A DNA stretch of 64,000 nucleotides, from the NCBI GenBank assembly GCA_016192455.1, contig JACPUC010000001.1:186001-250000 (forward strand), read 5' to 3'. Positions 2,026-25,275 of this stretch are shown piece by piece. The notes under the pieces are model-generated. The model saw nothing but the letters and a program-made list of their open reading frames with translations, ran no database searches and was not told the DNA's origin. The DNA comes from Candidatus Tectimicrobiota bacterium. Lineage in GTDB: Bacteria; JACPUC01. A program made the position numbers and the translations under genes. The first letter of the stretch is position 1, and each line of letters begins with the position of its first letter.

Positions 2026-3321
2026 CTACCTGCGCAGCAGCGGGTCGGAGCGGTCATGGCACTTCAGGCAGGCCTTGGTGTTGCGTTTTCGGATGCTCGA
2101 ACCGTCGAATCCACGCGGATGCGGCCGGATGTTCACGGTGGACGTGCTGTGGCACTGCAAGCAGTCGTCTTCGCGGTGACAAGCGGCGCAGGCCTGGATG
2201 TTCTTGCGAGCATAGTTGCGATGATGTTCGGCGGTGACGAAACCAAAGGTAACCCAGTCAGGTGGATGGAAGAGTCTTGTCAGCGGGAAGGTGTCGAGCG
2301 TGACCCGATGCTGCTCATGGCATGAACGGCAGAAGGATTCCAGGCGGTGGCAGCTTGAGCAGTTGAAGCGGTTGGTAAACGCGGTTTTTGGATGGGTGGC
2401 GATCCAGTCATTGGGGTGAATCTTGGCCGGTTTTTCGCCTCCCCCCCGCGCCGTGTAGCCTGCTTGGTGACACTTCGAGCACCAATCTTCGAGATGGCAG
2501 TTGCGGCAGAGGGCGCGATCCGCCTCAGCCTGGGGCCGGTGGTTCTTCACCCAGTTCTCATCGTGGAAGAACGTTCGACGCGGTCCGGGCTTCAAGACAC
2601 CAGTGGGGAACCGCAGGCGCAGCAGCCCATTTGCCTCGGTCAAGTGGCAGGTGGCGCAGGCCGCCGGCGGCCGCAGCCCGTTGATCGTCGTCGTGCCGTT
2701 GTGGCACTGCAGACAGACCTCCATGCGCGGCAGGTTGTCTCGCGTCGCAAGCTGAACCTTCTTGAAGTCGCCATGGCACTGCTGGCAAAGAATGCCGTTA
2801 TCGAGGTGCTTCTTGTGGGGGAAGTTGAGATTCGGCGGCGGCAGGAGCATGCGCTCTGGAGGAGCGTCCTTGAAGTTCACCGAGACGGTAGCTTTACCGG
2901 AGGTTGGATGACAGGTGGTGCAGGTGGCCGGTGGAAAGCGAGTCGCGGCATCAGGGGCAAATATCTTATGACACATGGCGCAACGGATATCATGCTTGGC
3001 GGCATCGCCTTTCAGCCGGGGGAGGTTATCGTCGCTGGCGTTCGTGCTGGTGCGCACCTGGTCGTGGCAGTAGGCGCAGGCCATCCCTTTCAAGTGCTTG
3101 TCATAAAAAAAACGCAGGGGAATGCGCTGCTGCGGAAAGATCACCTGAGACGGCGCAAGCTCGCCGGCGGAAAAGGGAACAGGATTTTCCGTGTGCGGGG
3201 CCGCAGCGTTTTCCGCGGCAGGAACACCGCGGACCGCAGCGACGAGGACGAGGCCCACGAGTACGAAACCCGCCAGCCGAACATAGACGCGGGAGCCAGC
3301 AAAACCGCCTGGGAAGCGCAC
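2026..3321 (-). CDS. Periplasmic multiheme cytochrome c (13 CxxCH)
   Basis: Signal peptide; 13 CxxCH motifs counted (CAYCH, CAMCH, CTTCH, CQQCH, CLQCH, CATCH, CRNCH, CSKCH, CSSCH, CRSCH, CAACH, CLQCH, CLKCH); cytochrome c3-like FPHKKH and repeated HxxxWxxxH distal-ligand motifs. Confidence 0.92.
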   Translation of the reverse strand: MRFPGGFAGSRVYVRLAGFVLVGLVLVAAVRGVPAAENAAAPHTENPVPFSAGELAPSQVIFPQQRIPLRFFYDKHLKGMACAYCHDQVRTSTNASDDNLPRLKGDAAKHDIRCAMCHKIFAPDAATRFPPATCTTCHPTSGKATVSVNFKDAPPERMLLPPPNLNFPHKKHLDNGILCQQCHGDFKKVQLATRDNLPRMEVCLQCHNGTTTINGLRPPAACATCHLTEANGLLRLRFPTGVLKPGPRRTFFHDENWVKNHRPQAEADRALCRNCHLEDWCSKCHQAGYTARGGGEKPAKIHPNDWIATHPKTAFTNRFNCSSCHRLESFCRSCHEQHRVTLDTFPLTRLFHPPDWVTFGFVTAEHHRNYARKNIQACAACHREDDCLQCHSTSTVNIRPHPRGFDGSSIRKRNTKACLKCHDRSDPLLRR

Positions 3322-3330
3322 GGCATCACC

Positions 3331-4710
3331 TCAAAGCTTGCCGCTGAAGTAAATGGTCAGCTCCGCCAGGAAGCGGAACTCGTTTCTGGAGAAATCGTTG
3401 ATTAGGTTCTCCACTTCAGCTCGAACTTCAATCTTGCGATCGTGGAGATACGAAAGGCCGAACCGTCCGCCGAAACTCGTATCTTCGTTGAAATCCTGGG
3501 TGATCTGCTTGTAGCGCACGACGTTCACGCCGGTTCTGAGGAGTAAGCGCTGCCGCAAGAACGCCTTGTTCACCCCAAGATCCACGCCGTGCTGAACGCC
3601 GCCGAACCCATCCCGGTACGTCAAGCTGAAGGTTAGGAGATCAAGTTGATAGGGCGACGGCGCGCCAAGGTTGGCGACCTCGATGCCGGTGCTGAGCGTA
3701 TCATTATCATCCTCTTTCTCCAGGGTGCGCTCGAAAAATTGCCGCTCTACCTGAAAGAAAGTGGAGAGGGTGGGACGAAAACGGTACGTCAATCGCCCGC
3801 GCAACGCATCGTAAGGGTTGACGTTGAAGACGTTAAAGATCGAATCGAGATCGAATTCGGGCTCGAAGCGCTGGTACTCGAGGCGGACATCGGCTGCCGG
3901 AGTGAGGCGCAGGAGAACACCGCCGAGCGCTTCGCTCATCTGCTCGAGCGGAATGTTGTAGCTCGTGTTGGCGTAGGTGTGCACCCAGGAGATCAGCTCG
4001 TGACTGAAATCGAAGCCGATCCTCTCCTGGCTCAGGTCGCTCTCGCGTTCCTGCCGGTCATAGCCGAGGGCGAGGAACGTCCCCGCCCGAGGCCTCCAGG
4101 AGACCCGCCAGCCGGCCGCCAGATCGCCGCTACGGCTCTTGCTCTCCCGCGGCGGCACGGGAAGCCCCAGGTATCCTTCGACGTTGAACGGACCGAGGCC
4201 GGCATAGGCAAGCTTTGCGGCGTCGGCACGGACAAAATCGAGCCCATGCGTGATCAGTTGCCTGCCAAGGTTCAGCGACAAACCGCGCTGCGGGTCTCCG
4301 GCATCGACGTAGGCATAGAGCACCCTGTCCGAGTCGAAGTCGCTGGAGAGGTCGTCGACGTGGCGCAGGCTGGCGAAGAAGCTGAGGTTTCGATCGCCGA
4401 TTTTGTAGAGATTGAGGTCAAAGAAGTGCGTCAACGGCTCGAACTCGACCCGCCGGCCGTCGCTGGCGGGGAATTGGCTTTTGCGGAAGAGCATGGAGTA
4501 GCGGCCGCTCAGCAGGGTGGCCCCGGCGCTGGCGTGCCAGATCAGGTGCGCCATCAGAAGGATGGGCAACCCCTTCCCTATGCGACCGAGGCGGAACGTC
4601 TTCAGGGTTCGAAACTCCGTCGGCATCCCTCGGTAAATCGGGAATATCGGGACAGGTTTCCAAGAGATGCGGACGGGGAGGGCGTGACGCCAGGGAAGCG
4701 TCTGAGTCAT
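3331..4710 (-). CDS. Putative outer-membrane beta-barrel (porin) protein; the start may be 4626
   Basis: Signal-like segment ending ASAGA, many amphipathic beta-strands, LNLGRQ motif, terminal strand FLAELTIYF; 9 bp upstream of the multiheme cytochrome gene. Confidence 0.65.
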   Translation of the reverse strand: MTQTLPWRHALPVRISWKPVPIFPIYRGMPTEFRTLKTFRLGRIGKGLPILLMAHLIWHASAGATLLSGRYSMLFRKSQFPASDGRRVEFEPLTHFFDLNLYKIGDRNLSFFASLRHVDDLSSDFDSDRVLYAYVDAGDPQRGLSLNLGRQLITHGLDFVRADAAKLAYAGLGPFNVEGYLGLPVPPRESKSRSGDLAAGWRVSWRPRAGTFLALGYDRQERESDLSQERIGFDFSHELISWVHTYANTSYNIPLEQMSEALGGVLLRLTPAADVRLEYQRFEPEFDLDSIFNVFNVNPYDALRGRLTYRFRPTLSTFFQVERQFFERTLEKEDDNDTLSTGIEVANLGAPSPYQLDLLTFSLTYRDGFGGVQHGVDLGVNKAFLRQRLLLRTGVNVVRYKQITQDFNEDTSFGGRFGLSYLHDRKIEVRAEVENLINDFSRNEFRFLAELTIYFSGKL

Positions 4711-4752
4711 GTCCGGCGGTTGAGCCGAGCGACTCCCCTCTGCGCCTGCTCT

Positions 4753-5814
4753 CTATCTCAACGTTCTCAGGTATTCGGCCACCGCCTCCGCCTCATCCGG
4801 GGTGAAGCGGAAGTTCGGCATGCGCCCGCCGGTGCCCAGGTTGTAAGCCTCGCGACGAATCTCCCGACTCTCGGTGAGGAACTCGATCAGCCATGTCACC
4901 TGCGCCTTGCGGCCCTGCTGGGCGAGGGAGGGAGCGATCTCGCGCCGCGGCGGCAGTCCCGGAATGTCGCCGTGGCAGCCGACGCAGTTGAACTGGGCCA
5001 TCAACTGCCGCCCCATCTCCGGCGTCACGTCGGGATTCTGCCGCACAGCCCGCTGATATTCCGCCGGCAGCGGGTCACTACTTTGGGTGACCAGGAAATC
5101 CCGCAGCGCGATCATCTGACGAGCCTCATCCCCGCCGAGGATGTCCTCAGGCCCGGAACTCTCGTCGTCAAAGAAATTCGGCATCTTCACACCAGGCTGG
5201 AAGCTCTGCGGATCTTGCAGCCAGCGGATAATCCAGTCGGGGTTGAGCCGTTGGGGGACCAGCGACAGGTCGGGGGCTCGTTCGTCAGGCTTGACCGAGC
5301 GCGATTCTTTCCCGCGCAGGTGGCAGGTAAGGCAATCGAGGTATTCCGGCGTCATGAGCTTCTTGGCGGCGTCGGTCAATTCCGGCTCGCTGCGCCCGGC
5401 AAACCTGAACTTAGCGGGGAGCGGTTCGTCGTGGCGCTTGCGCTGCGTTTCCAGGAACTTGGTGATGGCCAGCGCCTCCCGGTCACCGAGGCGGAAGGTC
5501 GGCATGCGCATGCGCAGCCACGGGCGGATGCTGCGCGGCTGCTTGAGGAAGTCGAATAACCACTCCGGGCGAACCCGTTCCCCTTCGAAATCGAGCGGCG
5601 GCGCGCCGGGTTGCGGCGTTTGATCTTCTATCTGGTGGCACGCCGCGCAGTTGAGGTCGGTGACGAGCTCGCGTCCCCTGGCGGCGAGGGGGGAGAGGTT
5701 GCGCTGCGCGGCCCAGGCGCGGGAAAGGGCGTGGTGCAGCCAAGCTCCCGGCTCGACGTTCCAGAGCAGCAGGAAAAGGAGCAGCACGCTGCAACGTCTG
5801 AAGAGGCGGCGCAT
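4753..5814 (-). CDS. Triheme class I cytochrome c (three tandem monoheme domains)
   Basis: CAACH, CLTCH and CVGCH, each followed by P-x-L, W-x3-(F/W)L and an MP(T/N)F Met axial ligand; signal peptide MRRLFRR. Confidence 0.88.
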   Translation of the reverse strand: MRRLFRRCSVLLLFLLLWNVEPGAWLHHALSRAWAAQRNLSPLAARGRELVTDLNCAACHQIEDQTPQPGAPPLDFEGERVRPEWLFDFLKQPRSIRPWLRMRMPTFRLGDREALAITKFLETQRKRHDEPLPAKFRFAGRSEPELTDAAKKLMTPEYLDCLTCHLRGKESRSVKPDERAPDLSLVPQRLNPDWIIRWLQDPQSFQPGVKMPNFFDDESSGPEDILGGDEARQMIALRDFLVTQSSDPLPAEYQRAVRQNPDVTPEMGRQLMAQFNCVGCHGDIPGLPPRREIAPSLAQQGRKAQVTWLIEFLTESREIRREAYNLGTGGRMPNFRFTPDEAEAVAEYLRTLR

Positions 5815-5963
5815 ACTCGACTCCCACGTGCAAAAGCCCTCGCCTTCAGAGCCGGAACACCTGAGCGCGATGATTTCGCCTGCCAGGCGCCGCGGCAGAG
5901 CAGCGCGCTCTCGCCACGCCTGGGCGCGGCGAGGGGCCATGGACGCGACGCGTCGGGGCGGCT

Positions 5964-6392
5964 TCAACGCGGCGGCGCCGTTGGTCCACCGCCCGCCGGC
6001 GCCTCCGTGAGCTCGATGTGCACGGTCACATCATCCGAAAGCGCCAGGCGTCGCGGCGCGCTTGGCGCAAACTTCTCCTTCTCCACGCGCAGCCAGAAGC
6101 GGTCGCCCCAGTTCTTGCTCGTATAGGTGAGCGGCGTGCGGCCGTTGCCGATCGTCAGGGGAACGAAGGTCGTGCCGTCCTGCGACCAGAAAATCCGCCC
6201 GTCCGACGGCGCGCTGGTCACCGTGAGGGTTCGTGCACGCTGCGTCGCCGCCTCGCGGGCCTGCCGCAGCACCGTCTCGGGCAACTGCCCGAGGTAGATG
6301 CGCCCGCAGGCCGGCAACCACAGCGTGGAGAGAGAGAAGAGGAGGATGAGGAGCACCGGCGACCGCCCGCGTCCGCGTCGTCCGGGATTCAC
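5964..6392 (-). CDS. Putative lipoprotein with PEGA-like domain
   Basis: Hydrophobic stretch plus lipobox LPAC; LTVTSAPSDGRI...GRTPL resembles PEGA; start uncertain (GTG 6392 or 6494). Confidence 0.6.
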   Translation of the reverse strand: MNPGRRGRGRSPVLLILLFSLSTLWLPACGRIYLGQLPETVLRQAREAATQRARTLTVTSAPSDGRIFWSQDGTTFVPLTIGNGRTPLTYTSKNWGDRFWLRVEKEKFAPSAPRRLALSDDVTVHIELTEAPAGGGPTAPPR

Positions 6393-6473
6393 GGGACGCG
6401 AGGGCGCCGAGCAAGCAGGCTCCACCAACTCAGCGGGTGTTCGCGACGGCATCCCACGCTGGGCTGATACCCT

Positions 6474-6487
6474 CTGATTCATCTCAA
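6474..6487. promoter_or_regulatory. Degenerate FNR/Crp-family box
   Basis: CTGAT-TCAT-CTCAA, an 8/10 match to TTGAT-N4-ATCAA, upstream of the lipoprotein-cytochrome-porin genes. Confidence 0.4.
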
Positions 6488-6657
6488 TCTGCACGGTTGC
6501 CCACCATCGCTATCTTCGTCGCGGAGCGAGAATCCGCGGCACAACCAGGGATGACTCTGGCCTGGCGAACGCGACCCGAACCCTGGGAGGCCGCCCCGCC
6601 GACATCCGGTGGGAGAAGTGAGCGTTCCCGCCGGCTGCCGGTCGTGGGTGTGGTTGG

Positions 6658-8727
6658 TTAATTGTTCGGCGCGCCGGCCGCCACCCAGGCGGTGATGGTG
6701 GCGATCGCCTCGTCGGACAGCGGCGTCCTGCCGAGGGGCATCCGCTCCCCAACGGCGGCAATGCCGCGGATTTTCTGCACCAGGTAGCTGTTATCGGGGT
6801 CGCCGGGTTGGATGCGGTTCAGCGTGTTGACCTCGACGCTCCGCATGCCGACGATGTTGCTGAACGCGTTCCCCTGCGACAGGTTCTGGTTGAGCATGGC
6901 GCGCGGCCCGGAATGGCACCCGGCAAGGGCGCAGTTCGCCGTGAAGATGGGTTGCACGTTGGCGCTGAAACTGACGGTTGGCTGGGGAGGCGGTGCCTCT
7001 TCAACAGGGCCCGCATCCGGCGTGGGTTCCACCACTGGAGTTGGTTCAGCAATCGGCTCCGTGTCGGAGACGCCAGGGATGTTTGGGAAGGCCTTGAGGT
7101 AGAAGGTATGTGACCAGAGCATTTCGTTGGAGAGATGCATGGCCCCGGCACTATCAAAGTAGGTGTTGGTAACCATCCACGTCTTGGTTACGGGGTTGAT
7201 CGTAATCTCGGTAGCGAAGACTGGCGCCACGCCATTCTTTCCACCTGCCATTGGCGGGAGTGGAAGGGTGGGATACCGGTGGTCGATGTCGCGCAGCCGC
7301 TCGAATGCACCAATGCTTGAAGACGGTGGAGCCGAGCGTTTCAATCCACTCTGATTCACGGCGCTCTCAAAGAAGTTCAACCAGAGCGCCTTCACGGTTG
7401 TCTGGTTGACCGCATCGCCGCCTATTTGATTTAACGCGTTCAAAGCGCCGAGGATCGCGGCGATATCATCGACATGGTAGACGTGTTGACTTGTGAAGTA
7501 TCCGTGCGTCCAATCGTACTCAGCCACCAAGGCGTTGAAGACTTCGGCCGCGGCGGTCAGGAAGCGTGGCGCCCCGCTCGTGCGCGCCGCTTCGATGAGG
7601 CCCCGCACCGCATAGGCTTTCGAGCGCACCGTCGGTTTCTCGGCGGCGATGAGGGCATCTCCGAATGCCGCAATCTTGGCGAGAGCCGCGGCGCGGTTGG
7701 CGTCGTTGGTCGTATAGGCGGCGTACCACGCCAGGCCGGTGGCGGCGACCGCCTGTTCGATCACCGTGCTGGGCGGCTCGCCCGCGGCGATCTCCGCAAA
7801 CAGCGAGTCGGCGGCGCTGCCGAACATGGCGCCCATCTGAGCATCCCGGTAACGGTTCGTGTCGCTGCCATCGAGGGCGTCCCGGCTCTTCACGTCGGCG
7901 AGGTCACTCAACGCCTGCAGCATGACGTAGGTGCCGATCTTGCTGCTGACGAACGGCGTGGCGTCTGCCGCACCGGTCCGCCAGTTCATCCACTCCATGG
8001 CTTGCATGGCGGCCTCCATGGCGAGGACCATGCCGATGAAGCGCTGCTGGGCGCCGAAGGTGGCCGTGGGCGCGCCGAAATGCGGCTCGAAATGGAAGAG
8101 CCGAGCCCATTCGATCTCTTTGATCATGGTGTAGGCTTGCGCTTCGACGGTCACCGTCGTATCAAACGAGCTGGCATCCCAGCGGAAATTGCTGAAATCA
8201 CCCGAGTTGCCGTTATTCTCGTTCACCCAGACGGGATTGCCTGATTTGTAGACTGCTCGAAGCAGGGCCGGGTTTGTCGGGGGCATGGCCGCGTCGCCAT
8301 CGTTGGGATCGGGATCGAACATTGGAATCGCGGCCATCACCTGAGCCATATCCGGCGCAAAGGTTACGCCGAGGCCCGAGGTCATCACCAGTTCGCCCAA
8401 GTTGTACCGCGAGTACCAATACCCTTCATTCACCAGCGCGCGCTCGTCGAACTCCGGATTGTGGCCGGCAAGGAGCGACTCCTGCCTGCCGAAGCTCCCG
8501 TTGAACCTCCAAGATAAGCTCGCTTCGTCCCACTCGAACTCGGCCCAGAAACGATCATTGGGCGTTGCGTTGAGTCCGAGATTATAGATGCGGATAGTTT
8601 GGTCGGCGACACCCGTGGTCCGCACAAAGGCGTCGCTGAAATTCACCAAGCCCTGCGCCCTTGCATCAAGGCTCAGCACCAGAACAACGAGAACGGAGCA
8701 CGACAGGGTAAGCAAGTAGCGTCTCAT
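6658..8727 (-). CDS. Secreted protein with helical core, Pro/Glu linker and C-terminal cytochrome c domain (CX4CH)
   Basis: Signal peptide ending ARA; C-terminal FSANVQPIFTANCALAGCH...PGDPDNSYL...RMP...WVAAGA cytochrome c domain. Confidence 0.75.
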   Translation of the reverse strand: MRRYLLTLSCSVLVVLVLSLDARAQGLVNFSDAFVRTTGVADQTIRIYNLGLNATPNDRFWAEFEWDEASLSWRFNGSFGRQESLLAGHNPEFDERALVNEGYWYSRYNLGELVMTSGLGVTFAPDMAQVMAAIPMFDPDPNDGDAAMPPTNPALLRAVYKSGNPVWVNENNGNSGDFSNFRWDASSFDTTVTVEAQAYTMIKEIEWARLFHFEPHFGAPTATFGAQQRFIGMVLAMEAAMQAMEWMNWRTGAADATPFVSSKIGTYVMLQALSDLADVKSRDALDGSDTNRYRDAQMGAMFGSAADSLFAEIAAGEPPSTVIEQAVAATGLAWYAAYTTNDANRAAALAKIAAFGDALIAAEKPTVRSKAYAVRGLIEAARTSGAPRFLTAAAEVFNALVAEYDWTHGYFTSQHVYHVDDIAAILGALNALNQIGGDAVNQTTVKALWLNFFESAVNQSGLKRSAPPSSSIGAFERLRDIDHRYPTLPLPPMAGGKNGVAPVFATEITINPVTKTWMVTNTYFDSAGAMHLSNEMLWSHTFYLKAFPNIPGVSDTEPIAEPTPVVEPTPDAGPVEEAPPPQPTVSFSANVQPIFTANCALAGCHSGPRAMLNQNLSQGNAFSNIVGMRSVEVNTLNRIQPGDPDNSYLVQKIRGIAAVGERMPLGRTPLSDEAIATITAWVAAGAPNN

Positions 8728-8887: not shown

Positions 8888-9264
8888 GGAATGTTTTCAT
8901 TGCGGTCGGAATCACCAAGAAACTCACCATCCGAGCGTGAATGAGTGTGTGGTCGTTACGCCTCACAGCGGTTGCTTTCATGCAAGGTTCCACTATGTAC
9001 TGTCCAAATTAGACAGGCTGGATTTATCATGTTCGGGGAGCGGCTTTTGGCGCCGCGAAGCGTGCATCCAGCCAGGCTTCCATCCCTGCCGCCGCGGGGA
9101 GCGGTGCACGGGTGCGCGACGCTCAGCTTCACATGACTCCTCCGCGACGGGTGCGCGGCGTCCGCCTCTTCGGGGCCTGGCCAGCGGAGCGCTCCGTCTC
9201 CGCTGCTGAAGCGTGTTGGCGCCGCCGTCGACGCTCGGGTCGACGGCGGCGCCCCCAGGGTGGA

Positions 9265-10356
9265 CTACTGCACCGTCACGGAACCCACCATGCCGCCCGC
9301 GGCATGTCCAGGAACGGTGCAGAGCGAAGGGTAGATGCCGCTTTTGGTCGGCACGACGAACAGCTCCGTGCTTCCGCCCACCAGGAGTTCAATGGCATTG
9401 AAGTACGGCGCCTTGATCTCCGCGTGAGAGTCCTCCGCCTTGCGCAGGACGAGGGTGCGGTAGAAATCAGTGGTCGTGAAGTAATGCTTCGAGCCGTTGC
9501 CGGCAGGGTTCTGAATTTTCACCACGTAGGCGTGATCCTTCGCCAGGGGGACGCTGGACGGACTAAAGGAAAAGTCGCCTGCCTCGGGACCTTCGACCAA
9601 CGTCACCTCGACGGTCTCGCGGCTGCTCCAGACCTCGTGCGAGCCCGAGGTTCGCGGATCAATGTCCAGAGGCCGGGACCACTCCGAGGCCACCTGCAGG
9701 TCAATGGGATTCTGGGGCTCGCCGACCACGGTGATGGTTCCCGTCATGCCCAGCTCGGCATGGCCTGGGATGGTGCAGAGAAAGCCGTACTCGCCCGGCA
9801 CCATCGGCACGAAGAAGAGCTCGAGCTGACGGTCGGTTCCAGTCTTCAGCTCAAACGCTTTGAAGTACGGCGCCTTGTACTCTGCATCGCCGGTTTGCGC
9901 CTTGCGTGTGGCAATGCTCTTGTAAAACTCGGCCGCCGTGAGGTAGTGCTTGCTGGCATTGCCGTTGGCATTCTTGATGCGCAGAATGTAAGGGCGGCCG
10001 GCGGTGAAGGTGAGGTGGTTCGGCTCGAACACGAACTGCGTGCTGCTCAGCTCCTTCATCTCGACGGTGACGGTTTCCACCGCGCTCCAGTTGGCGGAGC
10101 TCACCACGTCGCTGCTTGATTCCACCCTGCCGACGCCGGCGGTGCCGAGCTCGAACTTCATCGTCACGGGGTTCCACACCATGTGCGCCCAAAACTCGCC
10201 GTCCACGCCTTCGACCGTGATGCCGCTCAGCACCACCCCCGTCTTGCCGCTGGTGGCTGAGGAGGTATTCGACAGGTCAATCGGCACCTCGGCATGAGCT
10301 ACGTGGACTGACACCAGCAACAACGCCGCTACCATTACGACTGTGCATGTTTTCAT
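9265..10356 (-). CDS. Secreted tandem cupredoxin (two type-1 copper domains)
   Basis: Signal peptide MKTC...AHA; two repeats with SKHY...CTIPGHAELGM and SKHY...CTVPGHAAGGM (His-Cys-His-Met ligands). Confidence 0.88.
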   Translation of the reverse strand: MKTCTVVMVAALLLVSVHVAHAEVPIDLSNTSSATSGKTGVVLSGITVEGVDGEFWAHMVWNPVTMKFELGTAGVGRVESSSDVVSSANWSAVETVTVEMKELSSTQFVFEPNHLTFTAGRPYILRIKNANGNASKHYLTAAEFYKSIATRKAQTGDAEYKAPYFKAFELKTGTDRQLELFFVPMVPGEYGFLCTIPGHAELGMTGTITVVGEPQNPIDLQVASEWSRPLDIDPRTSGSHEVWSSRETVEVTLVEGPEAGDFSFSPSSVPLAKDHAYVVKIQNPAGNGSKHYFTTTDFYRTLVLRKAEDSHAEIKAPYFNAIELLVGGSTELFVVPTKSGIYPSLCTVPGHAAGGMVGSVTVQ

Positions 10357-10560
10357 CGCCGGTTTCCTTCCGTTGCCTGGGTCTTGGCTCTGTTCCCCCC
10401 CGTCCACCATGTCCTCCCCCCATGGGGAGCCTGGAAGCTGGTCTGCCTGGCCCGAACGCCGCCCCGACGCGGGTCGCCGACCCATGCCGCCGGCTTCCAG
10501 GGCCGCTCGGAGCTTCGGCTTCCCCCCCTTGTCCCCCCTGGTCAGCACAGGGAGCGGCGC

Positions 10561-11068: not shown

Positions 11069-11896
11069 CTAAGGCTTCAAGCCTCGCTGGGTGGTCGCGC
11101 CGGGCTCAGTCAGCGCTACGCAAAGCTCCGCATAGCGCAGGAGCTCCTCTTCCGTCTGATTGGAGATGAGCACGTGAACCTTCCCCGCCGCCGTCCAGGC
11201 AGCGACGTGATGGTCCTGGTAAGGGCCATGACGAATCGTCAGCGAATCAACCTCGTGGCGGCGAGGTAAGTCTAGGACCATGTTCGAATCCCGAAACGCC
11301 AGATACCCCAGTCGATCGTCTCCCTCGTGGTACTCCACGAGCGCGGCGACCCGCCCGTCCAGGTTCACCACGGAAGCCCCGTCCAGGATGTAACCAGCCA
11401 GCGATGCCCGCGGCACCACCACCGAGAAACCGAGGCGTTCGTTCAACCATTCATCCACCTTCCAGAAGTCGCCCGAGCGGAAACCAAGCTCATGGCGCTG
11501 GGTGGCATGGCTTTCCTGCAGCTCAAGCAGCCGCGGCAGCAGCGCCGAGAGCATGGACCCCGCCGGCAGCCGATCGAGGCGCCAGACGCCAACCCCAAGC
11601 ACCGCCAGCACCGCCAGCACCGCCGCCACCGCCAGCGGCGCTACAACCTGCCAATGCAGGGTCCAGCGGCTGGCGAGTTTGTGCAGCTCCAGCCCGATCC
11701 GTTGATTCAGCTCCGCGGGAGCCTGGTGCTTCGTCTCCATGGTGCGCAGCGTCGCCCGCACCTGACTGAAGAACTCGAAGCGCTTGCCGCAGGTAAGGCA
11801 TTCCTCGAGGTGGCTGTGAATATCCGCATTCGTCTTGGCGTCCAGTTCACCGTCGAGGAACACATAGAGGTAGCGATTTAGGTCATGGCACTGCAC
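11069..11896 (-). CDS. Zinc-binding (ZAS/zf-HC2) transmembrane anti-sigma factor
   Basis: MQC...FLDGEL...HLEECLTC; one TM helix; His-rich periplasmic domain; abuts the sigma gene. Confidence 0.88.
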   Translation of the reverse strand: MQCHDLNRYLYVFLDGELDAKTNADIHSHLEECLTCGKRFEFFSQVRATLRTMETKHQAPAELNQRIGLELHKLASRWTLHWQVVAPLAVAAVLAVLAVLGVGVWRLDRLPAGSMLSALLPRLLELQESHATQRHELGFRSGDFWKVDEWLNERLGFSVVVPRASLAGYILDGASVVNLDGRVAALVEYHEGDDRLGYLAFRDSNMVLDLPRRHEVDSLTIRHGPYQDHHVAAWTAAGKVHVLISNQTEEELLRYAELCVALTEPGATTQRGLKP

Positions 11897-11897
11897 T

Positions 11898-12464
11898 CTA
11901 GGACCCCTCGGCCTGCCGTAACTTCGACAGATGCCGCTCCAAATCGCACCGAGCTCGAGAGAGCCTGGACATTACAGTTCCGATAGGGACATCAATGATG
12001 CCGGCGATCTCGCGGTACGTAAACCCTTCCACATCCGCAAGAATGATGATGAGGCGATGCTCGGCCGATAAGCGCGACAGCGCCTCCTCAAGGCACTGCC
12101 AGGTAAAGCGGAGGTCGACAACCTTTTCCGGATCTTGACTGGAACAGGAGCTGAACAGCGCCGCGACCTCTTGACCCCATCGTTCCTCATCCCACGCAAA
12201 CGGGTCAACGGGGATCTCCTTCTCCTTCTCCCTGATCAGGTTCTTCCACGTATTGAAGAGAATGGAGAACAGCCAGGAGCGTCCCTGCTCGGCCCGGTTG
12301 AGTTGTTTGAAATTCTGATACGCCTTGCAAAACGTCTCCTGCACGAGATCATCAGCGTCCGCAGGTTCCTGCACCAAGCGCAGCGCCGCGAAATGGACGG
12401 CATCGAGATGGGGAAGGATCACCCGCTCGAACTCTCGACGATGATCCTTGCGGCGAAATAGCAT
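11898..12464 (-). CDS. ECF RNA polymerase sigma-70 factor
   Basis: DADDLVQETF (region 2) and TYREIAGIIDVPIGTVMSRLSRAR (region 4); ATG 12464 preferred because it has an RBS and lies downstream of the ECF-type promoter. Confidence 0.92.
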   Translation of the reverse strand: MLFRRKDHRREFERVILPHLDAVHFAALRLVQEPADADDLVQETFCKAYQNFKQLNRAEQGRSWLFSILFNTWKNLIREKEKEIPVDPFAWDEERWGQEVAALFSSCSSQDPEKVVDLRFTWQCLEEALSRLSAEHRLIIILADVEGFTYREIAGIIDVPIGTVMSRLSRARCDLERHLSKLRQAEGS

Positions 12465-12497
12465 CGGCTTCCCCGAACTTGGCCTCTTCACCAACGT

Positions 12498-12524
12498 AGA
12501 CACCGGGAAGCATTGTTTTATTCC
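12498..12524 (-). promoter_or_regulatory. Putative autoregulatory ECF promoter
   Basis: GGAATA-N17-GTCT on the minus strand just upstream of the sigma gene. Confidence 0.55.
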
Positions 12525-12617: not shown

Positions 12618-15600
12618 TCATCGCCGGCGCGGCCGCCGCAGGCTCGTCCGCAGATCAAGGAAGAGCGCGAAGAGCACCGGCACCAGCACCAGGGTGAGGA
12701 GGGTGGAGACGGTGAGGCCGCCCACCACCGCCGCCCCCAGGCCGCTGTAGAGCTCGGCGCCGGCCGAGCTGGCCGACTCGGGGAGGAGCCCGAGCGCGCC
12801 CACCACCGGCTCGATGTGGAGTGCCCCGGCGAGACGCTGCATGGCCAGGCCGAACTCATTGCCGGCGGCCAGCGGCAGCATGCCGAGGACGCTGGTGATC
12901 GTGGTCATGAAGATCGGCCGGATGCGCGAGCGCGTGCCCTCGATGAGCGCCTCGTACGGCTCCATCCCCTCGTTGCGCATGAAGTTGAGGGTCTGGTGCA
13001 CGAGCAGGATCGCGGTGTTGACGACGATGCCGCTGAGCAGGATGAACCCCAGGCGGGTGATCATCGTGTACTCGGAGTGGGTGAGGCGCACCGCCAGGAT
13101 GGCGCCGCTGGCGGCCAATGGCACCGTGATGATGATGATGAGCGGGTAAAGGAAGGACTCGAACAGCGACGCCATGAGCAGGAAGATGATGAGCACCGCG
13201 AAGACCAGCGACCAGCTCACCTCGCGGATCGCCACCTGCAGCTTGTCGGCGCTGCCCGCCAGGGTGAACGAGTACCCCTGGGGGAGGGTGCGGCGCAGCG
13301 GCTCGAGGACCTCGTTCGTCACCGCCTCGATCACCTGCCCGAGGGGCGCGTTCTCGGCCACGTTCACCGTGAGCCTCACGGCGCGGTCAAGCTCGATGTG
13401 ATCGATCTTCGTGGGGCCGGTGGTCTTCTCGAGCTGCGCGATGCTGGAGAGCTTCACCTGCATGCCGTTGGGCGTGTAAACGATGAGGTCGGAGAGCGCG
13501 GCGGTATCGTGGTAAACGCCGCGAGTGCCCTTGACGCGCACATCGATCTTATCGCCCCCTTCGCGGTACTCGGTGGCGACCCGGCCGGCCACGAGCGTCT
13601 CGACGACGTCCGCCACCTCGCGCACGGAAAGGCCGAGATCGGCGGCGCGCTCACGGTCAACCTTCACCTGCACCTCTGGGTTGCCGGTCTCGTAACTCGT
13701 GCGCACGAAGGTGACGCCCTCAACCCCCTGCCCACTCGCAGGCGGTGAGGCGAAAGCTCCGCCGTCCCCGCCGGGCGGGCCGGGCCGTACCTCCCGCCGG
13801 CCATCCCTCGCCCTGCCGGCCTGGCCATCCCCGTCACCCGCGGCCGGGCGCGCCGCCGGCACGGCCCGACCGGCGACCGTCTCGGGACGAGGCGTGATCT
13901 CCGGCTCCGCTGCCGGCGCTTCAACGGGCGGCGCTCCGCTGAGCGGGCCGCGCGGCGGCATGATCCGGTTCTTGATGCGTTCGGAGATGTCGGCGACAAC
14001 GTCGAGGTCCTTGCCGCGCACCTCGATATCGAAACTCTTGCCGAAATCCCGGCTGAAGATGTTGCTCTGCAAGGCGAGAGCGAACTCAAACCCGGGAACG
14101 CCGGCGGTGAGACCCTGAACCTTCGCGACCAACTGCTTGAGCTGCGGCTCGTACTCTCGCTTCGCGCTGATGCCGATGCCTTTGAAGCGCTCCCCGGCCA
14201 CCGCGAAGAGGTACTTCACCTCCGGCAGGCCCAGCAGCCGATCCTGGACGCGATCCGTCAGCTCCTCCAGCTTGTCCAGGTTCGTGCCGGGGAAGGGTTT
14301 CAGCACCACGAAGATGAAGTTGCGGTTGCCGCCGGGGAGATACTCCGACTTCGGCAACACCTGGATGCTGGCCACGAATCCCATGGTCACCAGGAGCAGC
14401 AGGGCAACTTTTTGCAGGGTGGCCGCGAGGGTTGTCCGGTAGGCTAGCGGGGTTGCCTGACGCCCGGGGAGGCCGCCGGTCGCATCGTGGACGCCGAAGT
14501 CCGCGGCGGTCAACGTCGAAGTTCCCTCACCAGGCGCCGGGGCGGTAGGGCCCCTCCGGCGCAGTGCCCGCGGCAGCCCCGCGCGGGCCGCCGCCAGCAG
14601 CCCGGCGGCGAGGGTGGGGGCGATGAAGAGGAGCCAGGCCTGTGCCGTCGGCCAGGGCGAAGGGGCCGGCGACGAGGGCCGGTGGCCAGGGGGTCCGAAG
14701 CCGGAAGCGGGCTGCGGCGCGGCGAGCGGCTCCCAGAAAAATCGCCAGCCATCCGCCGCGGGCTGCACCATCAACGGCAGGAGAAGGACGATGAGCAGCG
14801 CCGCCAGCAGCAGCACGCCGATCAACGGGTGGGGGGCTGTCGGCGCCTCGCTCTCGTCGCGGCTCGCGGCCGCCACGGGGCTCGCTCCGGCCGGCGCGTC
14901 GAAGAGCTCCGCCGCTCCTTCCGACGGCGCGGCGGGCGGGCTCGACGCAGCCCGCGCACCGCCTTGCGAGGGGGTTGGAGCGCCCCGATTGTGGGCCAGG
15001 CGCAGGACGGTGTCGAGCAGGAGGTAGCTCAAGGGAGCGAGGGCAAGCCACTCATAGAGTCCCAGTCCCCGGCTGACGAGGCTGCTCAACAGCCCCCCGG
15101 CGGCGAGAGACGCCGCGGCAAGCGCCAGCAGCCGGCGCGTCTCGTCGCGCTCCAGCTCAACCGGCCGCGTCAGCCAGCGGACCGACTCCACGATCAGCCA
15201 GAAGACCCAGCGGCTCAGCCACCCCAGGAGCGCCAGGTCGACCAGGAAGCGCGTCCCAGCGAAGCGCTTTGGGCTCCGCCCTGAACCGCCTGCCGGTCTG
15301 CCTCCCAGACGGCGCCCGAATCGATTCCACCATGATGCTCCCGGCTCCGTCGCCTCGCCGGCGCTCGCGGCGCCCTCCCTTGCCGCGGGAGGGACGTTCA
15401 GCTTCGAGGCGCTGATGCGCAGGAAGCGGGCGCAGAGCATCGGGATGACGGTGATGGAGACGAGGAGCGATAGCCCCACTGCGGCGCTGATCGCCAGCGC
15501 CAGGTCCTGGAAGAGCTGCCCCACCTCCTCCTCGACGAAGAGGATGGGCAGGAAGACCGCCAGCGTCGTCAGGGTCGAGGCCAGCACGGCGCCCCAGACC

Positions 15601-16886
15601 TCGCTGGTGCCGTCATAAGCGGCGGCCATCCGGTTTTTGCCCATCTGCAGGTGGCGGTAGATGTTCTCCAGCACCACGATGGCGTTATCCACCACCATGC
15701 CGACGGCAAAGGCCAGCCCCGCCAGGGAGATGATGTTGAGGGTCCGTCGGAAGGCGAGGACCACGATGAAGGTGCCGATGAGGGAGATCGGGATGGAGAA
15801 GCCGATGATGAGCGTGCTGCTCAGGCTGTGCAGAAAGAAGAGCAGCACGAAGACCGCCAGGAAGGCGCCGAATCGCAGGTTCTGGGTGACGAGGGCGATG
15901 GCGTCGCGGATGTACTCGGTCTCGTCGTAGACCGGCTGCAACTGCATGCCGCGCGGCTCGAGGTGCTGATTCAACTCGGCGACGGCGCGGCGCACGCCCT
16001 CGATGACGGTCAGGGTGTTCGTTCCCGTCTTCTTGATGACGCCGAAGCCGACGGTGGGCACGCCGTGCTCCTTGATGACGGCGTCGCGCTCCTCGAAGCT
16101 GTCGATCACCTCCGCCACGTCCTTCACGTAGACCGGGACGCCGCCATTCTTGGCGATGATGACGTTCTCGATCTCCTTCACGGCGCTGAACTGCCCCACG
16201 GTGCGCACCGCCCAGCGGCGCTTCCCCTCGTCGACGTGGCCGCCGCGCACGTTGCGGTTCTCATTGCTGAGGGCGTCGCGCACCTGGGCGATGCTGAGGC
16301 CGCGCGCGTTCAGGGCGCGATGGTCGAGGATGACGTGGATCTCGCGCTCCTGGCCGCCGAACTGCCGCAGATCGCCGACGCCGGCGACCCGCTTCAGGCG
16401 CGGCGCAATGAGGTCGTCGGCGTACTTGCGCATGGTGTTGACCGGCAGGTTGCCCTTGATCAGCATCCACATGATCGGCTGCGCTTCATCGCTCGAGATG
16501 GCGGAGATGATCGGCTCGTCGGCATCCTCCGGCAGGTCTTCCACCAGGTTGAGCTTCTTCAGGATGTCGATGCTGGCGAGGTCCTTGTTCACCCCCCAGT
16601 CGAACTCCAGGGTGATCGACGAGCGCCCCTCCTGCGAGGTGGAGGTGATCTTCTTGACGTTCTCCACCGAGTTGAGCTTCTCCTCGATGCGGTCCGTCAC
16701 CTGCTGCTCGACCTCCTGCGGCGCGGCGCCGCGGAAGGTCGTGTTGACGGTGATCTCCGGCTGGTCGATGGTGGGCTTGAGCTGCACGGGAACGCGGTAC
16801 AGCGCCAGCACGCCGAAGAGCGCCAGGAGGAAGACCGCCGAGATAACGGAGACGGGGCGCGTGGTGGCGGTGTGGATGAGCTTCAT
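12618..16886 (-). CDS. RND efflux permease (AcrB/AcrD/AcrF family) with large insertions
   Basis: RPVSV N-terminus, GMVVDNAIVVLENI, SRIRPIFMTT; about 1420 aa versus about 1050 typical. Confidence 0.92.
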   Translation of the reverse strand: MKLIHTATTRPVSVISAVFLLALFGVLALYRVPVQLKPTIDQPEITVNTTFRGAAPQEVEQQVTDRIEEKLNSVENVKKITSTSQEGRSSITLEFDWGVNKDLASIDILKKLNLVEDLPEDADEPIISAISSDEAQPIMWMLIKGNLPVNTMRKYADDLIAPRLKRVAGVGDLRQFGGQEREIHVILDHRALNARGLSIAQVRDALSNENRNVRGGHVDEGKRRWAVRTVGQFSAVKEIENVIIAKNGGVPVYVKDVAEVIDSFEERDAVIKEHGVPTVGFGVIKKTGTNTLTVIEGVRRAVAELNQHLEPRGMQLQPVYDETEYIRDAIALVTQNLRFGAFLAVFVLLFFLHSLSSTLIIGFSIPISLIGTFIVVLAFRRTLNIISLAGLAFAVGMVVDNAIVVLENIYRHLQMGKNRMAAAYDGTSEVWGAVLASTLTTLAVFLPILFVEEEVGQLFQDLALAISAAVGLSLLVSITVIPMLCARFLRISASKLNVPPAAREGAASAGEATEPGASWWNRFGRRLGGRPAGGSGRSPKRFAGTRFLVDLALLGWLSRWVFWLIVESVRWLTRPVELERDETRRLLALAAASLAAGGLLSSLVSRGLGLYEWLALAPLSYLLLDTVLRLAHNRGAPTPSQGGARAASSPPAAPSEGAAELFDAPAGASPVAAASRDESEAPTAPHPLIGVLLLAALLIVLLLPLMVQPAADGWRFFWEPLAAPQPASGFGPPGHRPSSPAPSPWPTAQAWLLFIAPTLAAGLLAAARAGLPRALRRRGPTAPAPGEGTSTLTAADFGVHDATGGLPGRQATPLAYRTTLAATLQKVALLLLVTMGFVASIQVLPKSEYLPGGNRNFIFVVLKPFPGTNLDKLEELTDRVQDRLLGLPEVKYLFAVAGERFKGIGISAKREYEPQLKQLVAKVQGLTAGVPGFEFALALQSNIFSRDFGKSFDIEVRGKDLDVVADISERIKNRIMPPRGPLSGAPPVEAPAAEPEITPRPETVAGRAVPAARPAAGDGDGQAGRARDGRREVRPGPPGGDGGAFASPPASGQGVEGVTFVRTSYETGNPEVQVKVDRERAADLGLSVREVADVVETLVAGRVATEYREGGDKIDVRVKGTRGVYHDTAALSDLIVYTPNGMQVKLSSIAQLEKTTGPTKIDHIELDRAVRLTVNVAENAPLGQVIEAVTNEVLEPLRRTLPQGYSFTLAGSADKLQVAIREVSWSLVFAVLIIFLLMASLFESFLYPLIIIITVPLAASGAILAVRLTHSEYTMITRLGFILLSGIVVNTAILLVHQTLNFMRNEGMEPYEALIEGTRSRIRPIFMTTITSVLGMLPLAAGNEFGLAMQRLAGALHIEPVVGALGLLPESASSAGAELYSGLGAAVVGGLTVSTLLTLVLVPVLFALFLDLRTSLRRPRRR

Positions 16887-17105
16887 GGGACGGTACAAGC
16901 AAGGGGGGCCGGGATGGTCGGGGTTGACGCGGCCGCGGGCCGGCCCGACGCCAGGCCCGGCGGACCGTCGCGCACCGCCGCCGCGAACATCTCTCCCCTG
17001 GAGCTGCGCGCGGCATGAGCGGCACGGGGGGTGGTCAGAGGTCGAGGGGAGGCGAGGCCGGCGGCGAGGGACCGCGGCGCCTGCACCGCGCTCGCCGCGG
17101 GGCCC

Positions 17106-22521: not shown

Positions 22522-22537
22522 TAGCAACGGCGGAGCG

Positions 22538-22557
22538 CCTGTCTGCCGACAGGCAGG
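22538..22557. repeat. REP-like palindrome
   Basis: CCTGTCTGCCGACAGGCAGG, same arms as the hairpin at 670-696. Confidence 0.55.
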
Positions 22558-22611
22558 CCTGAGGAGGCGCTGTCGCTAGCGGCGGCAACCTCGCGCAAAA
22601 GGAACCTGGCC

Positions 22612-23634: not shown

Positions 23635-23715
23635 GGGAGTGAGCAGCAACGGACCGGCGCCCGAGACGGCGCGATCAGTCTAGGCAGCACTCTGGTGCAG
23701 GGAAGGAGACCGTGT

Positions 23716-24741: not shown

Positions 24742-25275
24742 GTGGGGTGCGCGCCGCCGTTGTAAAAGCTGACGTGTCAGTGCTGTGGCGGCGGAGAACC
24801 TGGCGGCCAGGTCTCCACCGCAAGGTGTCGGGGCCGAGGGACAACGGGGCTTCGCAGCGCGTTTTCCGCGAAGCCCCGTTCAGCGTGAGCGCCGGCGTGA
24901 GGGAGGGGATGTCAAGCTTCGCGCGACGGCTTGCGCGCCGCCGACCTAGGATGCTCGCTGGGCGCCGGCTGCCAACGGTCCCCACGATTCAGGGTTCCGG
25001 GGGCGGGGGCTGGATGCGCGCAGCAGGTGACGGCAGGTCTTCGCCTTTTTGAGATCGTCCAGAGAGAGCCTCGAGGGGCTGTACGTCCTGGAGTACGCTC
25101 GGCGAGGGGACGCAGCGTCAGCCCCTGCCAGCCGCGGGCTTTCTCCACTCTCACCTCGAAACGTGGAATGCCTTCAAGCCGCGGCCAGGAAGCTCGGCCG
25201 GCAGGAGCCCCGCGGCATGCTCGCATTCTGCACAGCGTGTTCCCCACTGGCTTTGTAGGGAGCCTGGTAAGCGCG

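Follow-up and report, generated by a model that had tools for sequence, protein, structure and literature searches.

A family of secreted proteins with a predicted (alpha/alpha)6-toroid fold and repeated linkage to electron carriers was identified from a gene of Candidatus Tectimicrobiota bacterium JACPUC01. The gene lies in a stretch of 64,000 nucleotides (contig JACPUC010000001.1, positions 186,001 to 250,000; hereafter the window). Here the open reading frame (ORF) 6658..8727 on the minus strand begins with ATG and encodes a protein of 689 aa, in which a core domain is joined by a linker to a C-terminal domain homologous to PSCyt1-type cytochromes c. The core belongs to a previously undescribed family, which is absent from the copies of Pfam, NCBIfam 20.0 and the PDB copy searched. 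Three types of carrier (PSCyt1 cytochrome, cupredoxin and HiPIP) are repeatedly linked to it, which, judged from the sequences, is a classic signature of functional partnership. The gene, the family, its modelled fold, the homology of the haem domain and the repeated carrier linkage are shown by the analysis. It is tentatively proposed that the toroid is functionally redox-coupled, that is, a substrate-binding or catalytic module tied to one-electron transfer.

The ORF and all motifs quoted in a preliminary description of this DNA were found in the translation. That description had also given a secreted protein with a core, a Pro/Glu linker and a cytochrome c domain with the spacing CALAGCH, and the sequence agrees with this layout:

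8656..8727, minus strand: signal peptide, residues 1-24 (MRRYLLTLSCSVLVVLVLSLDARA, cleavage expected before QG), read from the translation
8476..8655, minus strand: variable N-terminal stretch, residues 25-84, with predicted local distance difference test (pLDDT) values mostly <50
7063..8475, minus strand: core, residues 85-555 (471 aa), member of an unannotated (alpha/alpha)6-toroid family, with the motifs YWYSRYNL (residues 103-110), RWD (182-184), KEIEWARLFH (203-212) and MHLSNEM (530-536) in its translation
8308..8400, minus strand: Met-rich core segment, residues 110-140, with 4 Met in the window protein
6952..7062, minus strand: Pro/Glu/Thr-rich linker, residues 556-592, from sequence, pLDDT <50
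6661..6951, minus strand: C-terminal PSCyt1-type monohaem cytochrome c domain, residues 593-689, from alignment A2
6913..6933, minus strand: haem-attachment motif CALAGCH (CX4CH), residues 599-605, from sequence
6739..6741, minus strand: Met663 in the invariant (R/Q)MP motif, proposed sixth haem ligand, from alignment A2

Residues 25-84 are common only to P0002, a protein of 93% identity, and the matches of homologs begin at about residues 82-98 (P-numbers denote database proteins, P0001 being the window protein, and L-numbers denote genomic loci). The whole protein contains three Cys (Cys10, Cys599 and Cys604); because Cys10 sits in the signal peptide, the haem-motif pair is the only Cys of the mature protein. 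The core contains 15.9% Ala, 3.8% Met, 2.3% Trp, 3.4% Tyr and 1.9% His. The richness in Met, His, Trp and Tyr ascribed to it is therefore a mild enrichment of Met, Trp and Tyr, whereas the core is not His-rich. The gene is present in a single copy in the window genome (4.46 Mb, 31 contigs, 88% complete), the sole genome of its phylum in the GTDB set examined. All sampled words of the ORF are present in four runs labelled groundwater metagenome, which belong to one study and may be where this DNA came from; five other runs contain small shares of the words, and no RNA run was found among the runs listed.

The core family and its fold

The window protein has no match in Pfam-A (2025 copy) or NCBIfam 20.0 at E ≤ 0.01, and no Pfam 38.1 family is common to the members of the Atlas cluster of its core. 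Against PDB sequences, P0001 matched cyclin B1 through its linker only, and a core profile (A1, 39 sequences) gave chance-level matches only (E ≥ 0.083). A word-indexed search recovered 174 clusters at E ≤ 1e-3 among 8000 scored candidates. The best 120 of the 174 are mostly proteins of 480-570 aa with 39-51% identity over the core, plus one twin of 93% identity, and are called hypothetical wherever the source gives a name. Precomputed Pfam domains were found in five of these 120, namely PF07635 (PSCyt1), PF00127 (copper-binding, plastocyanin/azurin type), PF01476 (LysM), PF13860 (FlgD_ig) and PF27998. An exhaustive search returned 6994 representatives at E ≤ 1e-3, of which 109 reach E ≤ 1e-30, matches to the C-terminal domain alone included. 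The core had been called uncharacterised and conserved-looking: the first holds by the lack of a Pfam or NCBIfam match, the second by the 174 clusters and 118 genomic relatives, which go far beyond chance. No paper on the core family was found in the literature, a result of little weight because a nameless family is hard to find by words.

Relatives are encoded in 118 stretches of a species-level genome collection; 79 loci were kept, all from metagenome-assembled genomes (MAGs). Chloroflexota is the dominant label; others are Bipolaricaulota, Thermotogae, Thermaceae/Oceanithermus, Rhodobacteraceae, Acidimicrobiia, Atribacterota, Aerophobetes, Cloacimonadia, Spirochaetes, Myxococcales/Deltaproteobacteria, Bdellovibrionales, Methylococcales and one Methanocellaceae bin. 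The archaeal-labelled member from this bin (L026/L081) is the sole match at E ≤ 1e-5 among 301 genomes of its phylum. It groups on the tree with Aerophobota and Atribacterota sequences, and is therefore ascribed to a recent transfer or a mis-binned contig. An Atlas structure search gave a 717-aa archaeal ‘cupredoxin domain-containing’ cluster at a TM-score of 0.78 as an unverified lead. With the core profile at E ≤ 0.1, matches were found in 7 of the 301 genomes, four of the matches being Thioredox_DsbH proteins and not cupredoxin fusions, and the Atlas cluster was not recovered by sequence. Among 30 genomes offered as ‘same domain’ relatives there was one match, to the haem domain only.

An N-terminal hydrophobic run was detected by a crude heuristic in 186 of 214 Met-starting family proteins, from which the family appears to be secreted or anchored. 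Tandem double core domains are present in P0003, P0004, P0005 and P0124 (941-978 aa), suggesting that the toroid may work as a pair. No longer fused form of the core was found among proteins of 1207-3445 aa, which is weak evidence.

The protein was modelled by AlphaFold2 from the 39-sequence alignment A1. The mean pLDDT was 79.2 for the full protein, with block means mostly >90 over residues 90-550 and 12-13 helices in series; model confidence was poor in residues 25-85, in the linker and in the haem domain. No Foldseek match in the PDB reached E ≤ 1e-3, the best (4e-3) being glycoside hydrolase family 9 (GH9) and glucose/cellobiose 2-epimerases. Comparison of the core model by VIA-align gave the following Z scores, with root-mean-square deviation (rmsd) for the best match:

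D-mannose isomerase 5x32: Z 24.1, rmsd 2.9, 312 residues, 8% identity
Cellobiose and N-acylglucosamine 2-epimerases (4z4j, 5zig, 1fp3, 8bry): Z 23.3-23.6
Polysaccharide lyase 5no8: Z 22.6
GH76: Z 22.4
Thioredox_DsbH protein 7tkv: Z 20.3
GH88/GH105: Z about 20
Terpene cyclases: Z 16-19
Complement thioester domains: Z 16-17.4

Together, GH76, GH88, GH105 and the toroid lyases span Z 19.3-22.6. By the model and the fold search, the core is an (alpha/alpha)6 toroid, in agreement with an earlier guess of an alpha/alpha toroid, and the fold matches single out no one family. Sequence comparison with the N-acylglucosamine 2-epimerase (AGE) family did not connect the two: hhalign of A1 with an alignment (A3) of three genomic PF07221 proteins gave a probability of 0.48% (E 0.12). 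The invariants of A3 are QAR, GHxxE and YHxxR. In the core, Arg107 is on the first helix and His531 on the last, and His531 is replaced in 25 of 233 domains. The window protein has no hidden Markov model match to the GH76, GH88 or GH105 families, and its homologs have only sub-threshold matches to GH88 and C5-epim_C. A match to a known hydrolase or epimerase with intact catalytic residues, in a family devoid of redox links, was the outcome that would have spoken against a redox enzyme; it was not found at the sequence level, and the homologs are recurrently fused or adjacent to redox carriers.

Sequence-weighted conservation was calculated from 233 full-length core domains of 228 proteins with at least 26% identity to P0001. 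Values >0.85 were obtained for Tyr103, Trp104, Tyr105, Ser106, Arg107, Tyr108, Trp183, Lys203, Glu204, Trp207, Arg229, Trp334, Arg382, Asn430, Trp517, Met530 and Trp538. Glu206, Gln242, Arg292, Glu379, Glu476, Asn534 and Glu535 have values of 0.78-0.83, and Arg375 has 0.73. Six Trp positions are invariant in the core, Met530 is kept in 224 of the 233 domains, and His212, His216, His531 and His540 are kept in 208-215. Residues 110-140 contain a median of 16.1% Met, compared with 3.2% in the remaining core. The number of Met in this 31-residue segment has a median of 5 and is most often 5-7, the window protein having 4. The columns 241, 269, 301, 493 and 530 are 65-96% Met. Met241 is present in 26 of 29 carrier-linked and 13 of 24 stand-alone members, and Met136 in 21 of 29 and 12 of 24, respectively, in groups that are not phylogenetically independent.

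Electron carriers linked to the core

The 79 loci were surveyed with our own crude ORF calls, in which core and PSCyt-like ORFs were kept by force, and two genes on each side of the core were scanned with Pfam (218 proteins); many of the loci are too short to show neighbours. A carrier is fused or adjacent to the core in 19 of the 79 loci, as follows:

L004, L006, L007, L009, L010, L011, L014, L016, L017, L019, L028, L030, L065: PF07635 gene directly downstream of the core
L008: PF07635 gene one gene further downstream of the core
L063, L067: adjacent plastocyanin-type cupredoxin gene
L071, L075: cupredoxin fused to the core
L076: HiPIP gene, core paralog, uncharacterised gene, then core fused to a PSCyt-like domain

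Fusions were also found among database proteins. A cytochrome c is fused to the core in P0016, P0122, P0126, P0145, P0155 and P0132, and a cupredoxin in P0073, in P0127 (identical to L071) and weakly in P0148. The cupredoxin fusions mentioned in the preliminary description therefore exist, in P0073, P0127/L071 and L075 and weakly in P0148. The locus in the Bdellovibrionales MAG (L076:4717-10876) encodes, in order, HiPIP, a 477-aa core paralog, a 415-aa protein, the core-PSCyt-like fusion and a 362-aa protein. The 415-aa and 362-aa proteins have no Pfam match and are possible additional components of the system.

A FastTree of 81 core domains contains 29 rows with a carrier, 24 without and 28 in which short flanks leave the state undetermined. 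The carrier state changes at least 10 times on this tree, and seven changes are forced by branches with support ≥95. Carrier-linked rows cluster on the tree (none of 500 shuffles gave so low a value), as is expected among related sequences. The window protein is placed in a supported group of 20 rows; the state is known for 18 of these, and 15 of the 18 are carrier-linked. Within the tree it groups with the cupredoxin-fused Acidimicrobiia clade, with weak support (82-92).

The C-terminal domain of the window protein (residues 593-689) aligns with 20 small proteins at 38-70% identity (alignment A2). Twelve of the 20 are PF07635-positive lipoproteins encoded beside Chloroflexota core genes, at 38-48% identity. 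The invariants of A2 are the C, C and H of the haem motif, M-P of (R/Q)MP, a W and a final G-A, and CALAGCH aligns to the C-x-K-CH of PSCyt1 homologs as a two-residue insertion. The domain is therefore classed, by prediction, as a divergent PSCyt1-type monohaem cytochrome c. It gives nothing against PF07635 at E ≤ 0.01 as part of the whole protein or at E ≤ 1 alone. The best Pfam match of the domain alone is PF13442 with 17.4 bits; the gathering threshold of PF07635 is 22 bits, and 14 adjacent Chloroflexota PF07635 proteins score 36.7-47.6 bits.

The spacing CX4CH, earlier taken as atypical, is real and is a common variant: a regular-expression count in 267 proteins gave 67 CX4CH and 49 CXXCH domains, and both spacings are present inside single tandem-repeat proteins such as P0158. 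Among 57 multi-domain relatives of the haem domain that were scanned, 18 have no Pfam match at E ≤ 1e-5 (e.g., P0165, P0182, P0188-P0190, P0208 and P0210), and eight of these 18 contain CX4CH motifs, mostly two per protein. On this sequence evidence, CX4CH marks a common branch of the PSCyt1 domain that is largely missed by the Pfam model. Elsewhere, single or tandem copies of the haem domain accompany Ig-like, PKD and CHRD domains, CopC-like matches and MopE-type motifs, and the domain behaves as a putative plug-in module for extracellular electron transfer.

CX4CH haem spacing is present in Desulfovibrio cytochrome c3. The window genome encodes CcmE (86 bits, above the cut-off), and ResB (System II) was not found in this 88%-complete genome. 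Covalent haem on the CALAGCH of the window protein is plausible, because CcmE is present and CX4CH is named among haem-binding motifs in PMC11492766. Met663 is proposed as an axial ligand by analogy with class I cytochromes c. A separate model of the haem domain, built without haem, has a pLDDT of 68.5, a mediocre value that the missing haem leads one to expect. Its top fold matches are c-type cytochromes, yet weak ones (FoxE, Z 5.0; PccH, 3.6; YhjA, 3.0), 8q1v is listed at Z 2.5, and the best Foldseek match, hydrazine synthase (E 0.03), is weak as well.

All-against-all clustering of 726 ORFs from the loci gave no further conserved partner of the core. The other genes found near cores include:

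L004, L011, L014, L016, L021: glutaredoxin-fused pyridine-nucleotide disulfide reductases
L004: AhpC/TSA
L067: thioredoxin
L029: rubrerythrin
L012, L025, L029: Crp-type regulators
L020: Thioredox_DsbH gene
L033:5593-9452 and L034:613-4472 (near-identical Chloroflexota loci): MerA and helix-turn-helix gene directly upstream of the core, same strand
L036, L042: HMA P-type ATPases (L042 also a MerR regulator)
L002, L041: sugar ABC transporters
L026: GH15
L037: GH57
L069: CBM48

The MerA of L033 and L034 is full-length, with an HMA domain, a redox-active CxxxxC and a C-terminal CC. GntR or RpiR regulators are located near some cores, and pentose-phosphate genes are recurrent near Chloroflexota cores. 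Several recurrent neighbours probably reflect synteny among relatives, and the thiol/oxidative, heavy-metal and sugar neighbours are too infrequent to decide the function.

Proposed working of the toroid and alternative explanations

In a redox-coupled toroid, the invariant residues Tyr103 to Tyr108, Lys203, Glu204, Glu206, Arg229, Gln242, Arg382, Asn430, Glu476, Met530 and the six Trp would line a central pocket which, by comparison with other toroids, would bind or convert a small polar, anionic or metal-ion substrate. Haem would be attached to CALAGCH by the Ccm system of the genome, with His605 and Met663 as presumed axial ligands. The reaction or ligand state of the toroid would be coupled to single-electron transfer, and the tethered haem would act as an electron shuttle that connects the toroid with soluble high-potential carriers, in this case the blue-copper protein with two domains encoded upstream and the cytochromes encoded downstream. 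The overall outline would be a substrate:cytochrome c oxidoreductase of quinohaemoprotein-like build on a toroid scaffold, in which haem binding, the direction of electron flow and any catalysis are putative. Cu(I), held by the Met-rich segment and Met530, is the best-motivated substrate. It is suggested by the Met-rich lid and the near-invariant Met530, by the abundance of Trp, by cupredoxins as partners and by heavy-metal genes near some cores; it is nevertheless an improbable candidate. It is also quite unlikely that the family constitutes a new class of extracytoplasmic oxidoreductases without a conventional cofactor site, in which a bound ion or small molecule, with Cu(I) as the leading candidate, would be oxidised or reduced in a Met/Trp/Tyr-lined pocket and single electrons would pass to the high-potential carrier of each lineage (PSCyt1 cytochrome, cupredoxin or HiPIP).

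Several observations weigh against redox coupling. Most members of the family are stand-alone. Among the 53 tree rows of known state, 24 have no nearby carrier, and these include lineages labelled Thermotogae, Bipolaricaulota and Aerophobetes. Redox Pfam domains are present in only two of the 120 best matches. The 14 Chloroflexota carrier loci fall in few clades, so that relatedness inflates the counts. Other C-terminal additions are non-redox (LysM, FlgD_ig-like, TIG and DUF7482) and typical of surface enzymes. The gene cluster of the window is not conserved around the 79 loci, the only common feature being an ECF-sigma cluster in three loci. The role of catalytic unit of the cluster, suggested for the core in the preliminary description, gains no support from this or from the hairpin and 538-bp spacer between the cupredoxin gene and the ORF. 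The strong fold matches are all non-redox (carbohydrate-active enzymes, terpene cyclases and thioester domains), and the invariant Arg/Lys/Glu/Asn/Trp/Tyr set also suits a sugar-acid-binding pocket. No redox cofactor site could be named in the core, and no bona fide PqqC was found in the window genome (TIGR02111, 90.6 bits; cut-off 240). Cys is conserved at no position, the median Cys fraction over the 233 domains being 0. The candidate His ligands vary as well: N212/W216 are present in the cupredoxin-fused Acidimicrobiia, N212 in the Bdellovibrionales, P0126 and P0132 proteins, and position 531 is L in P0073, R in L067 and W in L063.

The replacement of His212, His216, His531 and His540 in many carrier-linked members argues against a His-ligated redox metal centre, and these residues are ruled out as a metal site of the family. 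The core had been described as a possible metallo-oxidoreductase; the ‘metallo’ part of that claim, in its simplest form, is not supported, given the lack of conserved Cys and the variation of the His in carrier-linked members.

The main rival explanation, considered rather unlikely, is an ordinary carbohydrate-active toroid without redox function. It would be a lyase, a hydrolase or an epimerase, or would bind an anionic glycan or sugar acid at the cell surface, and the appended or neighbouring carriers would serve another partner. This explanation agrees with the top fold matches, which are carbohydrate-active (alpha/alpha)6 enzymes (AGE, Z 23-24; 5no8, 22.6; GH76, 22.4; GH88/GH105, about 20), whereas the core shows no sequence relation to CAZy-type Pfam families and hhalign against AGE gave about 0.5%. 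Homologs do have weak Pfam matches to C5-epim_C and GH88, and GH88, GH127 and pectate-lyase clusters are among the feature neighbours in the Atlas, with scores of 0.83-0.84 that are leads only. Invariant Arg, Lys, Glu, Asn, Gln, Trp and Tyr and the LysM, TIG and FlgD_ig-like tails of homologs would fit such a protein. So would the sugar-related neighbours in L002, L041, L026, L037 and L069 and the GntR/RpiR regulators, but no polysaccharide-utilisation cluster recurs around the 79 loci. The presence of X183 cytochrome c domains on extracellular carbohydrate-related proteins, reported in PMC8981238 and PMC10916295, provides a precedent for the layout. Three carrier types and at least 10 state changes on the tree are hard to explain without a redox role, and a glycan-specific enzyme would not usually retain 40-50% identity across phyla.

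The toroid may instead be a periplasmic or extracellular binder of Cu(I) or another soft metal with a Met-rich lid, of which the carrier-linked forms would be cuprous:cytochrome c/cupredoxin oxidoreductases, counterparts of CueO that need no oxygen, and the stand-alone forms would only sequester metal; this is regarded as unlikely. The Met content of residues 110-140 (median 5 Met per 31 residues; 16.1% against 3.2%), Met530 in 224 of 233 domains and the fuller Met columns of carrier-linked members are in its favour, whereas the segment of the window protein has only 4 Met and lacks three commoner Met columns. In CusF, Trp makes cation-pi contacts with Cu(I), and the six invariant Trp of the core could provide the same; many invariant Arg and Lys are, on the other side, unsuited to a cation site. 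L033, L034, L036 and L042 have heavy-metal genes no more than two genes away from the core, but these are only three independent loci among 79. No cop or cus genes are present in the window, and the best score of its adjacent RND pump is that of a multidrug type. Many of the source MAGs have isolate labels from vent, sediment and groundwater surveys. Recruitment of Cu(I) by Met-rich domains is reported for CueO (PMC11494321, PMC12041951 and PMC12510620).

Very little probability is given to a toroid in which an organic or haem cofactor, such as a quinone, a flavin or haem b, is bound non-covalently and which acts as a cofactor-dependent dehydrogenase in a new fold. Three invariant Arg and Lys203 could bind carboxylates or propionates, Met530 is a possible axial ligand, and the order of catalytic domain, linker and cytochrome c mirrors that of quinohaemoprotein dehydrogenases. 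Opposed to these are the lack of any known cofactor-binding motif or family match, the PqqC score below the cut-off (90.6 vs 240 bits) and the lack of a cofactor-dependent dehydrogenase among the solved toroids in the fold list. The family also occurs in lineages labelled Thermotogae, Atribacterota and Bipolaricaulota, which to our knowledge are not known for such cofactors.

If the coupling of the toroid to electron transfer is real, periplasmic redox chemistry would take place on a fold hitherto associated with sugar chemistry and the cyclisation of terpenes. The family has hundreds of members in Chloroflexota, Actinomycetota, Deinococcota, Pseudomonadota, Bdellovibrionota, Thermotogota and candidate phyla, almost all uncultured. 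For such a family the repeated attachment of three carriers is a rare handle on function, with the haem or copper centre as a built-in spectroscopic reporter in screens for the substrate. If the Cu(I) redox reading is true, oxygen-independent metal detoxification or energy gain would be available to microbes of anoxic groundwater, vents and sediments. The large CX4CH branch of PSCyt1 is not recognised by the Pfam model and therefore probably goes uncounted when c-type cytochromes are tallied automatically in environmental genomes.

Gene surroundings and known systems

All genes from 12503 down to 2026 in the window are located on the minus strand. The neighbours of the ORF are:

11898-12503, minus strand: ECF (extracytoplasmic function) sigma factor (Pfam)
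11069-11896, minus strand: zf-HC2 anti-sigma factor (Pfam)
between the anti-sigma factor and cupredoxin genes, minus strand: 121-aa ORF (ORF list)
9265..10548, minus strand: secreted protein with two cupredoxin domains, upstream neighbour (PF00127, E 3.6e-11, two stretches)
9218..9253: perfect 15-bp inverted repeat just past the cupredoxin stop (sequence)
5964-6494, minus strand: 176-aa lipoprotein-like ORF, downstream
4753-5967, minus strand: tri-haem cytochrome c, near-threshold SoxX-like (56.8 vs 61 bits)
3331-4710, minus strand: 459-aa Cys-free protein, nearest named Atlas clusters outer-membrane beta-barrels
2026-3321, minus strand: 13-haem c7-type cytochrome (CXXCH count, Pfam and NCBIfam)

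The neighbouring cupredoxin gene named in the preliminary description is 9265..10548. Its two domains contain the loops CTIPGHAELGM and CTVPGHAAGGM, with Cys/His/Met type-1 ligand motifs, and translation probably begins at an internal Met ahead of the signal peptide. The protein shares 26% identity (E 2e-9) with the core-fused cupredoxin of the Acidimicrobiia; both are of the CxxPGHxxxGM type, the fused loop being CNIPGHRDAGM. An AT-rich spacer of 538 bp separates the cupredoxin gene from the ORF. The 15-bp hairpin is a putative terminator, and together with the spacer it suggests that the ORF may start its own transcript. A consensus scan for sigma-70 promoters and terminators gave counts no higher than in shuffled sequence.

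Judged by strand and spacing, the downstream genes 2026..6494 may share an operon with the ORF. The 459-aa protein is a member of a family that is widespread but has no name, with Atlas clusters in Zixibacteria, Myxococcota, Thermodesulfobacteriota, Calditrichota and Ignavibacteriota. Its score of 0.92 against outer-membrane beta-barrel clusters is a lead only. This nearness and the position beside the 13-haem cytochrome give the pair the look of a porin-cytochrome module, and the two proteins may form a porin-cytochrome conduit.

Further features were observed elsewhere in the window. The RND permease gene 12618-16898 encodes 1426 aa, and RND models match the protein in two stretches; a Pro/Ala/Gly-rich insert of several hundred residues has no counterpart in typical pumps of about 1040 aa. 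Three tandem genes for DctP-type TRAP solute-binding proteins are followed by two DctM large-permease genes at 21490-28593, an unusual multiplication. A low-GC island at 34287-35865 (GC 0.49 at 34-36 kb; GC at third codon positions 0.43-0.49 vs 0.9 in the flanks) contains a TIGR04255-family gene and two small ORFs. It is flanked by caprolactamase/hydantoinase-like genes at 32063-34174 and 35914-37680 and looks like a recent insertion.

Among known systems, the AGE superfamily (5x32, 4z4j, 5zig, 1fp3 and YihS 7ag4) has the same twelve-helix toroid as the core model, with Z 23.3-24.1 for the isomerase and epimerases, Z 21.8 for YihS, and rmsd 2.9-3.5 for 312-326 residues over 74-562. In contrast, the identity is 8-10%, no PF07221 match is present, the hhalign probability is low, and the AGE invariants QAR, GHxxE and YHxxR have no demonstrable counterparts in the core family. 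AGE enzymes are cytoplasmic, whereas the core family is secreted; it also has large insertions at 138-193 and 460-525 in addition to the Met-rich segment. In Thioredox_DsbH/DUF255 proteins (PF03190; 7tkv), a redox domain is likewise fused to an (alpha/alpha)6 toroid, one without an assigned function, and this is the only family touched by the core profile in sequence (E about 0.07, at the helix IRGLIEAYR, in 4 of 301 genomes). The redox domain is there an N-terminal thioredoxin fold and not a one-electron carrier, and the similarity is limited to a generic toroid helix.

The haem domain shares the start IQPIF...C..CH, the RMP motif and the end WIxxGA with PSCyt1 (PF07635), and is likewise of the tethered or tandem extracellular type. 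It differs in CX4CH instead of CXXCH, in a longer loop after the motif and in a score below the PF07635 threshold. In quinohaemoprotein (type II alcohol) dehydrogenases, a periplasmic catalytic domain is followed by a linker and a C-terminal monohaem cytochrome c, from which electrons pass to cupredoxins or cytochromes. The catalytic domain of these enzymes is a beta-propeller with pyrroloquinoline quinone (PQQ), whereas a helical toroid is present here and PqqC is not above its cut-off.

X183 domains of Teredinibacter turnerae resemble the haem domain as small cytochrome c domains appended by linkers to secreted proteins; in PMC8981238 and PMC10916295, they are proposed as plug-in electron donors outside the cell, linked to cellulose breakdown based on lytic polysaccharide monooxygenases (LPMOs). 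In fold they resemble the window domain only weakly (8q1v, Z 2.5), and no LPMO or CAZyme context is present here. CueO (PMC11494321 and PMC12041951) is also periplasmic, has a Met-rich segment and works with a type-1 copper centre. It is, however, a three-domain multicopper oxidase that reduces O2, whereas the present system has a toroid and a separate or fused blue-copper carrier, and no trinuclear site. Compared with these systems, the modelled fold is the six-hairpin toroid, the predicted haem domain is a divergent PSCyt1, the layout is that of a secreted domain tethered to a cytochrome, and the core family is new.

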